Shown here one piece after another: positions 12,309 through 16,289 of a stretch of DNA of 64,000 nucleotides. The position numbers and the translations under genes are program-made. The DNA is from Escherichia phage ECp13. Location of the stretch: the sequence record PP274704.1; one strand, given 5' to 3'. How positions within the stretch are numbered: position 1 is the stretch's first letter; each line of letters begins with the position of its first letter. Under the pieces are notes generated by a model, which was given only the letters and a program-made list of their open reading frames with translations, did no database searches and was not told where the DNA came from.

Positions 12309-12839
12309 ATGTCTCTTTATACCGAACTGAATGAAACTTCCGAAAAATCTTTTGATGATATCTTATCAATAATGCAAAAACAGGTATTAGAACAGCTTAG
12401 TGAAGCCGCAAGCAATGGGCACAAGGCTTGTCGAGTCCAAAGCCCACATCGCCGCATGTATGAACGCCCTCTTATTAATTGGCTAGAAAGCGAAGGTCTT
12501 ACAGTTAAGATTTGCCCTGCTAAATTTGATGTCCCACGTATTCTTAATATTTACTGGGATAAACCGGCTGAGAAATCGGTTGAGAAAAGTGACCCTTGGG
12601 TTGTTAATGTAAAAACATGTGACAGTGGATGCTCACTTGAGGTGTCTGCTGTAATTAAAGGCACTCATGGTGAAAAATCATGGGGTTGGCCTAGTAAAGA
12701 TAAAGAAATCGTGTTAAGTGTAAAAGCTACTAGTATTAGTACTCCTATAGCTAAAAGCATTATCGCCGCCGCCGTTGAAGAAGCTGAACGAATTTGTAAA
12801 ATTAAAAATAGTTTACATCTCTTAAATAGTATGATATAA
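12309..12839 (+). CDS. hypothetical protein
   Basis: 176 aa from ATG at 12309. Confidence 0.55.
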   Translation: MSLYTELNETSEKSFDDILSIMQKQVLEQLSEAASNGHKACRVQSPHRRMYERPLINWLESEGLTVKICPAKFDVPRILNIYWDKPAEKSVEKSDPWVVNVKTCDSGCSLEVSAVIKGTHGEKSWGWPSKDKEIVLSVKATSISTPIAKSIIAAAVEEAERICKIKNSLHLLNSMI

Positions 12840-12840
12840 T
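12811..12840 (+). promoter_or_regulatory. early promoter
   Basis: -35 GTTTACA, 17 bp, -10 TATAAT. Confidence 0.6.
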
Positions 12841-12881: not shown

Positions 12882-13475
12882 ATGAACACACTGAAGAAAA
12901 TTGTTGAATTTATTCGCACTAAACTTGGTTCTGCTATGGCTAAAAATCTATCTGTTGAAGAACAGTATACTGCTGCAGCAGCAAAACTGCTTGATAAAAT
13001 TAAAGATCTAAAAACTGCTTCTGTTAAATCTATTAATGAAGAAAAACGTATTCGTGAACTTATTGTCGAAAAGAATCGACAGGCCGAATCAAAAGAGCGT
13101 GAAATTCGTAAACTTCTTTCCGAAGGTCAAGATGTAACAATGCATGCTAAACTCGGTTTACTATATCGTCGAACAGCTGAGCAGTTGACTACTAAGGCTG
13201 ACGGTTATGCTGAAATGCGAATTGAAATCGCCAAGAAAGTAGTTGAGTTAGATGATGCTCGCCAAGAACTTGCAGTTAAATTGGAATATATCCGTGAAAC
13301 TCGTGCAGCAAATGCCCTTGGAATTAGTACTGCCGATGATGTAGTTGAAATTGCAGCACTGACTAAGGTTGATATTGAAGATACTCTTGCTCGAGTTGAA
13401 ACCTTTAACGGTAATATTTCTGGGGTTGAAACTACCTCTGCCGATGTTCAGGAATACATTAATTCTCTGAAATAA
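12882..13475 (+). CDS. coiled-coil protein
   Basis: 197 aa, heptad-rich K/E/R sequence; RBS AAGGAAA. Confidence 0.55.
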
Positions 13476-13479
13476 TGAT

Positions 13480-13498
13480 AAGGGGCTTCGGCCCCTTA
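13480..13498 (+). terminator. GC hairpin (weak terminator)
   Basis: AAGGGGCTTCGGCCCCTT with no clear T-run. Confidence 0.4.
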
Positions 13499-13516
13499 TA
13501 CTTGGAGTAAATAGGA

Positions 13517-14131
13517 ATGAAAATGAAAATGCAAAGTGATTTCAATTCAATGTTTGAAGAGTTCCAAAGACAGGTTGATGTTCCAGATCAATTACTAAAT
13601 GCTCTTAAGCGTATGGCAGAAGGACGTAATTACTATTGGGGGTCTTCATATGAAACTGATGAAAGCCTTTCCGGAAGATTTTCTAGAGGTAAAAAGTCTT
13701 TAATACGTCCTGGAATACTCATTAACAGTATTGAATCAATTCATTCATTGACATGTGATTTTGATGTTGAATTTACTGATTTCATTTCTCCTGAATGGAC
13801 AGTTTGTTATTTAAATGACGATTATGATTATCTTGGCGTTTATAGTTTAAGTGACGCATGGTTTAAACGTAATTTACAAAAGTCAAATTTGTTCTATATT
13901 GATACTACGGTAAAATTTCAGGGAAAGAAATATTTCTTTACTCTTATAATTGATTCTGAAACAAAGCATGAAAATAAACGTATTCTTAGTAAAAAGAATA
14001 TCTTAACTATTGTTGATGATCTTTTTGATAAATTCGTGGAAAATCCCAATTTTGAAAGCGATTTATTATTAGAAAAATTTGTTAAGGAATGTAGAGAATA
14101 TGTCAAAGCCATCACTATACCTTCCAAGTAA
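13517..14131 (+). CDS. hypothetical protein, first member of a C-terminal ECR-motif paralog array
   Basis: 204 aa; C-terminus EKFVKECREY shared with the next three ORFs. Confidence 0.55.
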   Translation: MKMKMQSDFNSMFEEFQRQVDVPDQLLNALKRMAEGRNYYWGSSYETDESLSGRFSRGKKSLIRPGILINSIESIHSLTCDFDVEFTDFISPEWTVCYLNDDYDYLGVYSLSDAWFKRNLQKSNLFYIDTTVKFQGKKYFFTLIIDSETKHENKRILSKKNILTIVDDLFDKFVENPNFESDLLLEKFVKECREYVKAITIPSK

Positions 14132-14492
14132 ACCTGTGAAGTATGAATTAAAGCGTCAGATAATTTCTACTGATGTGTTAATAGGTCCTGTGGTAGCTGT
14201 ATCATTTGTGATTTTGCTGATTGCTGGAATGGTTATAGACGTTATGACTGATATTGAATCTGGTGTAATATTTGGAGCAACACTAATTCTTCCATTGGTA
14301 GTTCCGTTTTTATTAGTACCTGTAAATTGGGTAGGATACTGGTATCAAGGAAGACACTATCGTAAACGCGTACGCGAATGGAAAGCTCAGTGTAAAAAGA
14401 TTAAAAAGGAACACCAGCTTAAACTTGATATGTATGAATTTAATGAAATTATGAAATTTGTTAAGGAATCACGATGCAAAAGCCAAAACTAA
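14100..14492 (+). CDS. small two-helix membrane protein, paralog array member
   Basis: ATG at 14100; two hydrophobic helices; C-terminus KFVKESRCK. Confidence 0.55.
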   Translation: MSKPSLYLPSKPVKYELKRQIISTDVLIGPVVAVSFVILLIAGMVIDVMTDIESGVIFGATLILPLVVPFLLVPVNWVGYWYQGRHYRKRVREWKAQCKKIKKEHQLKLDMYEFNEIMKFVKESRCKSQN

Positions 14493-14836
14493 ATAAAGTT
14501 AAATATTCGTTTCCTGAGGCACTATTAATTCTTGCCGTATCAGCATTTGTAGCTCTTGCAGGTAGTCTTATTGGATTAATGATTGACTGTATTATTTTAA
14601 ACATCGACGGCCCAGTAATTATAGAAGAGGTTTGGAGTGAACTTCGTTATACTATAGCGATTTCATTATTTTCATTCTTTGGTACCATGTTATATTTTCA
14701 TTATGATAATTTTAAAATAAATTGGCAAAGAAAAAAGGATTACAAAATACAATTAAAGGAATATAATAGCTACATGTCTTATATTGAAAATGAATCAATG
14801 AAAGAGTTTGTGAGTGATTGTAGGAAAATCAAATGA
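14474..14836 (+). CDS. small two-helix membrane protein, paralog array member
   Basis: 120 aa; N-terminus MQKPKLNKVKY resembles MSKPSLYLPSKPVKY of the preceding ORF; C-terminus EFVSDCRKIK. Confidence 0.55.
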   Translation: MQKPKLNKVKYSFPEALLILAVSAFVALAGSLIGLMIDCIILNIDGPVIIEEVWSELRYTIAISLFSFFGTMLYFHYDNFKINWQRKKDYKIQLKEYNSYMSYIENESMKEFVSDCRKIK

Positions 14837-15321
14837 TTTTAAAAACTCGCTGGTATGATTTAGATGATGGGGACGATGGCATTTCATTTGATAGAGTTGA
14901 CTGGAGCGGCTGTTCTGAAGATACAAAGAAACGATTAATTAGGGAGTTTAGAATGGGATATCAAGCAGTTAAGCCATCTACTGTAACAGATGATAAATTC
15001 GTGTGTATTCAAAATGGCCGTGCTAAGTTAACGAATGCTGATTGGTTTACAGGCAAGAATATGCTTTTATGGTATATCATTAGTCTTCCTGTGTCATCAT
15101 TCGTATTTTATTTCTTTGGAAAAAATCCAATGGATAGAATAGGAGATTGGGCTCTTTTTACTCTGCTTGTTAATATTTTTATAACAGCAGTAATATCAGG
15201 AATATGGTGCGTGTTCATTGAAATGCCATGGCGGTTACGTAGGCAGCAAAAGATTTTTGATGAAAAGAAATATACCCAAAATTTAAATAACTTTATCACT
15301 GAATGCAGGAAATTAAAATGA
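14833..15321 (+). CDS. membrane protein, paralog array member
   Basis: 162 aa; soluble N-domain plus two hydrophobic helices; C-terminus NFITECRKLK. Confidence 0.55.
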   Translation: MILKTRWYDLDDGDDGISFDRVDWSGCSEDTKKRLIREFRMGYQAVKPSTVTDDKFVCIQNGRAKLTNADWFTGKNMLLWYIISLPVSSFVFYFFGKNPMDRIGDWALFTLLVNIFITAVISGIWCVFIEMPWRLRRQQKIFDEKKYTQNLNNFITECRKLK

Positions 15322-15758
15322 AAACACTATCAGCTGGTATTATCTTTATGACAGAAGATAAAGATTTATTTATGGGACGAGTTACTGGTTCTCGTAAACC
15401 TGGAATGATGGCACATCGCTGGGATATTCCAAAGGGCCGTGTAGAAAGTTCTGATTTGAATGCACTGGAAGCTGCAAAAAGAGAATGCTCAGAAGAGACT
15501 GGTTTTATCGATTATAATTCAGACCTTCTAGAAGACCTAGGTGTATTTAAATATTCTAGTAATAAAGACTTACAGTTATTTTATTATACGATTCCAGTAG
15601 AGCATGAGATGTTTAGAAATTGCCATTGCGAGTCTTATTTTGAAAATAAAGATGGTGTTATGATTCCAGAGATGGATGCTTTTGCCCTTATTCCTCGTAC
15701 TCAGTGGCAATATGTGATGGGTCCTTCACTTTACCGAATAATGAACAGCCTCTTTTAA
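15303..15758 (+). CDS. nudE: Nudix hydrolase NudE
   Basis: 151 aa; Nudix box GRVESSDLNALEAAKRECSEETGF; position upstream of e as in T4. Confidence 0.8.
   Translation: MQEIKMKTLSAGIIFMTEDKDLFMGRVTGSRKPGMMAHRWDIPKGRVESSDLNALEAAKRECSEETGFIDYNSDLLEDLGVFKYSSNKDLQLFYYTIPVEHEMFRNCHCESYFENKDGVMIPEMDAFALIPRTQWQYVMGPSLYRIMNSLF

Positions 15759-16289
<531 letters not shown>

Follow-up and report, generated by a model that had tools for sequence, protein, structure and literature searches.

A C-terminal peptide motif shared by small early proteins encoded downstream of gene e.6 in T4-like phages, and its possible role as a docking helix

Introduction

Why do four consecutive phage genes end in variants of the same short peptide? 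The question is raised by the genes e.5, e.4, e.3 and e.2 of Escherichia phage ECp13 (PP274704.1), of which a stretch of 64,000 nucleotides (64 kb; hereafter, the window) was analyzed; the phage type of the window is Tequatrovirus, and the locus is read here on the strand opposite to that of the T4 map. A sequence-only reading of the window had described the four open reading frames (ORFs) as a tandem array of paralogs with a common C-terminal motif, conserved at the level of protein, RNA or both, and had suggested for them a role in superinfection exclusion or anti-defense. The ORFs themselves have long been known, and the e.2-e.8 block of T4 has been available in sequence for more than 30 years without an assigned function. 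The answer that we put forward is that the peptide may be a docking or assembly helix common to the small early proteins encoded right after gene e.6, an interpretation on which our judgment is evenly balanced.

A common motif at the ends of four genes

All four ORFs are present where the sequence-only reading had placed them (Table 1), and F[VI]x[ED][CS]R is found in each of them, 3-11 residues ahead of the stop codon. Their C-terminal sequences, ...KFVKECREYVKAITIPSK in e.5, ...KFVKESRCKSQN in e.4, ...EFVSDCRKIK in e.3 and ...NFITECRKLK in e.2, are as previously quoted, except that the motif of e.5 lies 11 residues ahead of the stop and is not terminal. The strict form of the motif occurs in e.5, e.3 and e.2, whereas e.4 has Ser for Cys (FVKESRC). 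The clustering of the motif at the four gene ends is not due to chance: the six-frame translation of the window contains six matches to F[IV]x[ED][CSI][RK], four of which are the four C-termini, and [FW][IV]xxC[RK] has only three matches in open frames of 45 codons or more across the T4 genome, all of them at the ends of e.5, e.3 and e.2. Motif genes are found nowhere else in the T4 genome or in the window. The T4 helicase loader gp59 (about position 148587, minus strand) ends with ...KNVFIETVKSCKY, a loose match near the C-terminus that is probably fortuitous.

When the e.5 proteins of 10 divergent phages were aligned, the only invariant residues were one Asn and the Phe, Cys and Arg of the motif, which is borne by the C-terminal helix (residues 183-198) of the e.5 structure model, a model of low confidence (predicted local distance difference test, pLDDT, 62.5). 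Upstream of the terminal motif, the tails of e.4 and e.3 each contain a second, degenerate motif-like stretch, REWKAQCKKIK (residues 91-102; 14370-14405) and MSYIENES (residues 101-108; 14774-14797), respectively, which hints at an internal repeat.

The motif in other T4-like phages

The sample consisted of 34 loci around e.6 homologs from IMG/VR together with loci from GenBank, and the motif proteins were clustered by their bodies. The motif class (hereafter FIxxCR) was defined by the pattern [FW][IVL]xx[CVMI][RK], located no more than about 22 residues from the C-terminus and preceded by a hydrophobic residue at position -3 relative to the aromatic residue. Among the 1061 plus-strand ORFs of 37 related loci, a near-C-terminal motif was detected in 157 under a loose definition and in 118 under the strict one (within about 22 residues of the end). 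Over 110,808 internal positions of the same loci there were 17 loose matches and no strict ones, and the control ORFs on the opposite strand gave 6 loose matches and 1 strict match among 534. Each locus has between 2 and 7 motif-bearing genes. The carriers fall into about 29 clusters, the bodies of which are not linked by BLAST; they comprise proteins with one or two transmembrane (TM) segments, soluble e.5-type proteins of 154-273 amino acids (aa), and soluble proteins of 92-116 aa.

The consensus, E-Φ-E-N-[FW]-[IV]-K-E-C-[RK]-K, is hydrophobic at -3, 0, +1 and +4 (a spacing of i, i+3, i+4, i+7) and basic at +5, a pattern that corresponds to one face of a short amphipathic helix. Positions that are not part of the motif definition are biased as well: in 64% of the cases -3 is hydrophobic, and basic residues occupy +2 in 54% and +6 in 43%. 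A search of IMG/VR with the exact string FIKECRK yielded 44 matches, of which only Mosigvirus e.3 is truly C-terminal, the remainder being chance matches or internal matches in an unrelated 176-aa family; this search provided no evidence of the motif beyond T4-like phages.

The likeness of the motif to the N-terminal MKTYQEFI(A/T)E of internal proteins raised the possibility of a capsid-targeting or gp21 cleavage signal. This candidate was rejected: Glu occupies position +3 in only about 33% of the clusters, and the motif carriers are membrane and early proteins.

Conservation as a peptide, with ribosome-binding sites in the same codons

The choice between protein, RNA or both, which the sequence-only reading had left undecided, falls mainly on the side of protein. 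Across the clusters, the Phe codon is TTT in 19 and TTC in 14, the Cys codon is TGT in 18 and TGC in 13, seven codons are used at the Ile/Val position and all six at the Arg position, and the distance from the motif to the stop codon ranges from 0 to 15 residues. With all synonymous codons in use and a variable register, conservation is mainly at the protein level. A structured RNA found no support: the RNAs of the four junctions fold no better than shuffled sequences (z of +1.15, +1.09, -0.72 and +0.07), and an Rfam scan of the junctions returned a single match, below the gathering score (E = 0.92).

The 'or both' alternative nevertheless holds in part, in that motif codons also make up the Shine-Dalgarno-like sequence of the following gene (Table 1). 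As had been noted, the conserved ends overlap the start of the following gene: by 32 nt between e.5 and e.4, by 19 nt between e.4 and e.3, by the ATGA at 14833-14836 between e.3 and e.2, and again by ATGA between e.2 and nudE, or by 19 nt with the first ATG taken as the start of nudE. Overlap with the next start codon is observed for 119 of the 157 motif genes compared with 147 of the 391 other ORFs that have a neighboring start. Where the motif is followed by a one-residue tail, the Shine-Dalgarno-like tetramer starts in codon +2 (Lys-Glu, AAGGAR) in 10 of 15 cases, and where the tail is three residues long, it starts in codon +5 (Arg-Lys, AGGAAA) in 12 of 14. Tails of nine residues or more place the Shine-Dalgarno sequence beyond the motif, which is retained all the same. 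The junction codons hardly vary among six Tequatrovirus sequences, third positions included, although so small a sample does not allow a firm conclusion.

The motif follows e.6, a predicted PspA/Vipp1-like gene

The genes e.5, e.4, e.3 and e.2 lie downstream of e.6 on the same strand. Gene e.6 is represented in 1106 phage records, with protein identity ranging from 99% within Tequatrovirus down to 32% in Pseudotevenvirus. Of 44 loci, which were sampled with e.6 as the anchor and are phylogenetically non-independent, 41 have the motif in the ORF that starts 6-64 nt past e.6; the three exceptions are one frameshift fusion and two loci in which the simple ORF caller found no such ORF. Motif proteins are encoded directly after e.6 in all Straboviridae lineages that were examined, the more distant ones included. 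Downstream of e.6, Biquartavirus 44RR has ...LFVDYCRRTASKK (LFVDYCRR); Ishigurovirus ZPAH1 has three soluble proteins in a row that end with ...RFIKKCRGMVK, ...NFVRKCRDIMK... and ...SFIKECRKIVS; Ceceduovirus CC2 has the variants FVNYCI and FVDYCV; and Pseudotevenvirus EBPL and RB43 have FIHSCKK about 25 residues from the end. The same arrangement of e.6 and motif genes is present in Aeromonas phages.

We assign e.6 to the PspA/Vipp1-like proteins with moderate confidence, on the basis of its predicted structure and of sub-threshold collinear matches to Vipp1. The search with a concatenated e.6+e.5 profile gathered at least 3 e.6 proteins, and therefore both structure models were built on shallow alignments. 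The AlphaFold2 model of e.6, built from a four-sequence alignment, has a pLDDT of 78.6, with values above 90 in the hairpin. It predicts an N-terminal amphipathic helix, then a long hairpin of two helices (25-80 and 86-145), and lastly short helices at the C-terminus, which is the layout of the PspA/Vipp1/ESCRT-III superfamily (amphipathic alpha0, long alpha1/alpha2-3 hairpin, shorter C-terminal helices). In a Foldseek search of the PDB with this model, the top eight matches were Vipp1/IM30 over the full length (E from 7.7e-4 to 1.7e-2, TM scores of 0.53-0.59), followed by the archaeal ESCRT-III protein CdvB2. A profile of 12 e.6 sequences aligned collinearly with Vipp1 from residue 1 (1-142 with 1-144), with E-values of only 0.08-0.68; e.6 had no Pfam match at E<=1, and its comparison with Escherichia coli PspA by hhalign was not significant. 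We found no mention of a phage-encoded PspA homolog in the literature searched, and phage-encoded members go unmentioned both in a survey of Psp systems (PMC9239133) and in a 2025 review of ESCRT-III-like systems in bacteria and archaea (PMC7619361).

The C-terminus of e.6, V-x-x-Y-[IL]-x-S-L-K, in which Y192, S195 and L196 are invariant, forms a helix in the model (pLDDT about 91) and displays the same pattern as the tail motif.

Predicted membrane topology

Two hydrophobic segments are present in e.4, e.3 and e.2 and none in e.5, in agreement with the sequence-only reading, which had noted such segments in three of the four ORFs. By the positive-inside rule, e.4, e.3 and e.2 are predicted to be hairpins with both ends in the cytoplasm: their N- and C-terminal parts are rich in Lys and Arg, and their loops are acidic. 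The periplasmic loops would comprise only 8-16 residues and the basic tails 32-51 residues ending in the motif, so that the tails, and the motif with them, are predicted to face the cytoplasm.

The membrane bodies evolve fast while the tails stay fixed. The ratios of non-synonymous to synonymous variable codons are 23/17, 23/13 and 28/22 for the membrane bodies and 5/29 for e.5.

A proposed docking helix for proteins encoded after e.6

In the interpretation that we put forward, the motif helix would link e.5, which is soluble, and e.4, e.3 and e.2, which are anchored in the membrane, to a single common partner, with docking on the cytoplasmic side of the inner membrane. Among possible partners, e.6 is the best candidate, and the tails might mimic its C-terminal helix. 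Short C-terminal amphipathic helices (alpha5) of the ESCRT-III/PspA superfamily pack on the alpha1/alpha2 hairpin. The e.6 protein resembles these superfamily members in that it is predicted to end in a confidently modeled helix with the motif pattern; unlike in ESCRT-III and PspA, the matching helix also sits on other proteins here, and alpha5 mimicry is only a hypothesis.

Small membrane proteins encoded beside PspA homologs recruit them to the membrane, as LiaI does for LiaH, and as described for PspB and PspC (PMC9239133). The locus is organized similarly, with a predicted PspA/Vipp1-like gene followed, in the same orientation, by genes for small membrane proteins that are predicted to face the cytoplasm; the two-TM proteins would fill the role of LiaI or PspB/PspC, as membrane partners of a PspA homolog. 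Unlike the Psp and Lia systems, the present one is phage-encoded, and e.6 remains below the Pfam threshold. No PspB, PspC or LiaI-LiaF-TM domain was detected in e.4, e.3 or e.2 at E<=1 (Pfam, NCBIfam), and neither the C-terminal FIxxCR helix nor the soluble e.5 has a described counterpart in these systems. A more specific version, which we regard as tentative and on balance doubtful, is a Psp-like membrane-maintenance module of T4-like phages, in which e.6 would polymerize and the FIxxCR helices would dock on the e.6 hairpin by mimicry; the diversifying membrane proteins would serve as anchors or sensors that, in the course of infection, nucleate e.6 at the inner membrane, position it there or regulate it.

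Several observations weigh against the docking interpretation. The conserved adjacency to e.6 is linkage and not binding, and the likeness between the C-terminus of e.6 and the motif is a single observation with an estimated chance probability of roughly 0.3-0.7%. The e.5 model cannot tell a free motif helix from one packed on the domain, and in e.4 the position of the Cys of e.5, e.3 and e.2 is occupied by Ser. Furthermore, a frameshifted e.2 is tolerated in T4, and in one phage the array has collapsed to a single hybrid gene, so any function would be dispensable in laboratory hosts.

Common descent and the history of the array

The foremost alternative, which we consider unlikely but which deserves to be taken seriously, explains the motif as a relic of common descent: a single ancestor would have been duplicated repeatedly, and its slowest-evolving helix kept for homo- or hetero-oligomerization, for instance as a helix bundle with Cys at the core, with no separate partner involved. 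The hydrophobic face of the motif is suited to helix-helix packing, and part of the array is indeed paralogous. Cluster profiles from which the motif had been cut off were compared with hhalign, alongside full-length profiles. For e.3 and e.4, the motif-free comparison gave a probability of 95% (E = 3.5e-8, 109 columns) and the full-length one 97% (E = 2.5e-11), which identifies the two proteins as true paralogs; they also share the N-terminus MxKPxL..(V)KY pointed out earlier. The claim that all four ORFs are paralogous thus stands for e.3 and e.4 and does not extend to the other two: the body of e.2 shows no significant similarity to e.3 (4%) or e.4 (1.4%) in motif-free profiles, the full-length alignment of e.2 and e.3 being limited to the last 19 columns next to a common two-TM layout, and the profile alignments of e.5 with e.4, e.3 and e.2 cover only 8-9 motif columns. 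In the wider sample, transitive links favor common descent for some clusters (e5-e5far 92%, e5far-e5dhaka 88%, C7-c14 83%, c8-c13 78%), but the profiles reveal no mutual similarity between the bodies of the e.5-type, the short soluble and the one- or two-TM carriers, so that a common descent of all of them is not demonstrable. Moreover, this alternative leaves the strict position downstream of e.6 unexplained.

In Dhaka-/Gaprivervirus-type, Karamvirus-type and other loci, the e.2 ortholog is located just before nudE, at a distance of 3-4 kb from e.3; therefore, the contiguous array of the T4 type results from a tandem duplication (e.4/e.3) and the loss of intervening genes, and its remodeling continues by deletion, hybrid formation and frameshift.

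Several variants of the array are found among relatives. In Escherichia phage UFV05, one ORF of 106 aa (L011:3501-3821) replaces e.4, e.3 and e.2; it joins the N-terminus of e.4, within the first TM segment (TM1), to the C-terminal part of e.2 and keeps the two-TM layout and the motif. The maintenance of this natural hybrid fits self-association; the union of e.2 and e.4 in our first clustering was an artefact of the same protein. In Shigella phage vB_SsoM_113, a 1-nt change just ahead of the e.5 motif (LLLENLLRNVENMSKPS...) fuses e.5 and e.4 into an ORF of 324 aa (L001:2718-3692), which may be genuine or due to a sequencing error in a homopolymer. A 69-aa e.4 variant in a public assembly (P0068) lacks both TM segments, its N-terminal 29 residues being joined directly to the cytoplasmic tail. 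T4 has the same e.2-e.5 genes as the window; the difference is in e.2, which is intact (162 aa) in the window and in most relatives and frameshifted in T4 (L006:3001-3488, T4 GT7; about position 67480 of T4, minus strand), where 102 aa are annotated and the part with NFITECRKLK survives in another frame. These hybrid, fused, frameshifted and TM-less forms imply that the genes are dispensable accessory genes under laboratory conditions.

Superinfection exclusion or anti-defense

Quite unlikely, in our estimate, is the function suggested by the sequence-only reading, taken here to mean that the array is made up of small membrane proteins in the course of diversification, with a role in superinfection exclusion or anti-defense that does not involve e.6. 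The early, dispensable and fast-evolving character of the region and its variable copy number are compatible with such a role, as is the restriction of the e.3/e.4 family to T-even-type phages: a profile search against 1.84 billion representative proteins gave eight matches, all of them T-even-type fragments or variants, with no distant or bacterial relatives. T4 Imm is likewise a small two-TM protein. Imm and Sp, which mediate superinfection exclusion in T4, resemble e.2-e.4 as small early envelope proteins that are non-essential in the laboratory; unlike them, e.2-e.4 have their conserved part in the predicted cytoplasmic region, show no sequence relationship to Imm or Sp, and have no known exclusion phenotype. 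We found no specific support for this role: searches of Pfam, PHROG, PADLOC and NCBIfam revealed no similarity to known exclusion or defense families, the predicted periplasmic loops are very short and the conserved element would be cytoplasmic, and the motif is common to soluble proteins as well and is tied to e.6.

Recombination and translation at the junctions

An improbable explanation is that the motif serves as a coding recombination linker, with homologies at gene ends that allow in-register duplication, deletion and swapping of genes. Such a linker would be the coding counterpart of the PeSL cassettes of T4-type phages, non-coding units of promoter and stem-loop (Arbiol et al. 2010, PMC2839356; Comeau et al. 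2014, PMC4122927), for which a role in gene shuffling is documented in the same two reports. Like PeSLs, the conserved sequences of the junctions are short, lie where genes meet in hyperplastic regions, and are linked to gain and loss of small ORFs, the number of motif genes per locus being variable; unlike PeSLs, the element in the window codes for protein and is kept as a peptide, at junctions without structure. A 16-nt exact direct repeat, AAATTTGTTAAGGAAT, is present at the e.5/e.4 junction (14075-14090), where it includes the Shine-Dalgarno-like AAGGAA for e.4 (14084-14089), and at the e.4/e.3 junction (14454-14469); the spacing of 379 nt between the two copies equals one gene length, and the repeat could be a substrate for the precise loss or gain of e.4. 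The junction DNAs of e.3/e.2 and e.2/nudE align with a score of 61, compared with 22 +/- 7 for shuffled sequences. The 5' ends of e.2 and nudE share GCTGGTAT.AT.T..ATGA (14849-14867 and 15333-15351), 16-17 nt past the ATGs and in different frames; the z score of this local alignment is 3.9, a level reached by none of 300 shuffles, and therefore the similarity of the junctions runs past the start codon at the DNA level. All this speaks for a linker. On the other hand, codons differ between genera, so that DNA identity is lost while the peptide is kept, the one clear recombinant (UFV05) crossed inside TM1 and not at the motif, and recombination may result from the conservation instead of having caused it.

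That the motif is conserved as the RNA-level initiation region of the next gene, through its Shine-Dalgarno sequence, spacing, lack of structure and termination-reinitiation, with the peptide a by-product, is largely refuted as the primary cause and very improbable: the frequent overlap with the next start, the placement of Shine-Dalgarno-like codons, the near invariance of the junctions among the six Tequatrovirus sequences and the 16-nt repeat would fit it, but Phe, Ile/Val, Cys and Arg are kept through every synonymous codon and in a variable register, the motif persists with the Shine-Dalgarno sequence outside it and in genes without overlap (e.g., L010:5160-5468), and the junctions neither fold beyond the level of shuffled sequences nor have an accepted Rfam match.

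Gene layout and annotation of the locus

Bases 13300-15900 of the window are 91-97% identical in DNA sequence to more than 500 phage genomes, many of them Tequatrovirus, and the gene names of T4 were transferred from annotated relatives. Past e.2, the order is nudE and then e (lysozyme). The promoter-like site upstream of e.6, identified by its match to the consensus, is a candidate start of an early transcription unit from e.6 to nudE, and the hairpin between e.6 and e.5 is not followed by a T run on the plus strand; together the two features are compatible with a single early transcription unit.

Table 1 Features of the e.6-nudE region of the window (positions in the 64-kb stretch)
Feature	Position	Strand	Description
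Promoter-like site	12812..12840	+	Sigma-70 type, TTTACA-17-TATAAT with TG; 11/12 consensus matches, consensus only; upstream of e.6
e.6	12882..13475	+	197 aa; predicted PspA/Vipp1 (IM30)/ESCRT-III-like
Hairpin	13478..13499	+	Between e.6 and e.5; stable, GC, with UUCG loop; annotated in T4 record L13089 as a putative stem-loop
e.5	13517..14131	+	204 aa; predicted soluble alpha/beta, no TM segment; PHROG 2607
Motif of e.5	14078..14095	+	FVKECR
Shine-Dalgarno-like site for e.4	14084..14089	+	AAGGAA, from Lys-Glu codons of the e.5 motif
e.4	14100..14492	+	130 aa; predicted two-TM hairpin with 51-residue basic cytoplasmic tail; PHROG 2604
Motif variant of e.4	14457..14474	+	FVKESR; Cys shifted two residues downstream (ESRC)
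Shine-Dalgarno-like site for e.3	14463..14468	+	AAGGAA, within e.4 motif codons
e.3	14474..14836	+	120 aa; predicted two-TM hairpin with 44-residue cytoplasmic tail, paralog of e.4; PHROG 2330
Motif of e.3	14807..14824	+	FVSDCR
Shine-Dalgarno-like site for e.2	14822..14827	+	AGGAAA, from Arg-Lys codons of the e.3 tail
e.2	14833..15321	+	162 aa; predicted 76-residue cytoplasmic N-terminal part, two TM segments, 32-residue basic tail; PHROG 2203
Motif of e.2	15292..15309	+	FITECR
Shine-Dalgarno-like site for nudE (start at 15318)	15307..15312	+	AGGAAA, from Arg-Lys codons of the e.2 tail
nudE	15303..15758	+	Nudix hydrolase; next gene after the array; start at 15303 or 15318

In Swiss-Prot, the T4 genes are labeled 'Uncharacterized 23.8 / 15.1 / 14.2 kDa protein in e-segB intergenic region', GenBank record L13089 names T4 e.2, e.3, e.4 and e.5 msp4-msp7, and existing annotations already give e.4, e.3 and e.2 as predicted membrane proteins. 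The four ORFs belong to four separate PHROGs families of unknown function, and e.5, e.4, e.3 and e.2 have no matches in Pfam, NCBIfam or PADLOC. A precomputed Pfam entry, PF26876, is given for the e.5 homologs P0046-P0059, and a local Pfam-A scan of e.5 gave no match. The product names of GenBank relatives are inconsistent: 'sulfurtransferase', 'DNA primase' or 'major capsid protein' for e.3 and e.4, 'site-specific RNA endonuclease' or 'phosphoserine phosphatase' for e.5, and 'host specificity protein' or hypothetical protein for e.6; the odd names are probably propagated errors. Annotations and the searchable literature on e.2-e.6, the motif strings and PF26876 record no function, common motif or link to e.6; we found there no earlier record of the motif, of its wide distribution or of the PspA-like prediction for e.6.

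In other genera, a second tandem array follows right after e.3 and consists of 3-5 small soluble paralogs that end with G(A)WVSSSxxC or WxxSSC (VR7, L007:3351-4610; SSE1, L008:3357-4151; also L018, L027, L031, L036 and L044). This array is missing from the window and from T4.

Implications for the T4-like phages

The presence of a portable C-terminal peptide on about 29 otherwise unrelated clusters, together with the synteny with e.6, provides a concrete and cheaply testable hypothesis for the e.2-e.8 block. The motif also illustrates clearly how the same codons can specify both a peptide signature and a ribosome-binding site. Should the link to e.6 fail, the motif would still be a marker by which fast-evolving orphan genes of the Straboviridae can be recognized and grouped. 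Should the link hold, the motif would represent a new type of interaction motif for the PspA/Vipp1/ESCRT-III superfamily, and if the proposed membrane-maintenance module is real, it may keep the membrane energized in lysis inhibition, after injection damage, or against abortive-infection effectors that attack the membrane.

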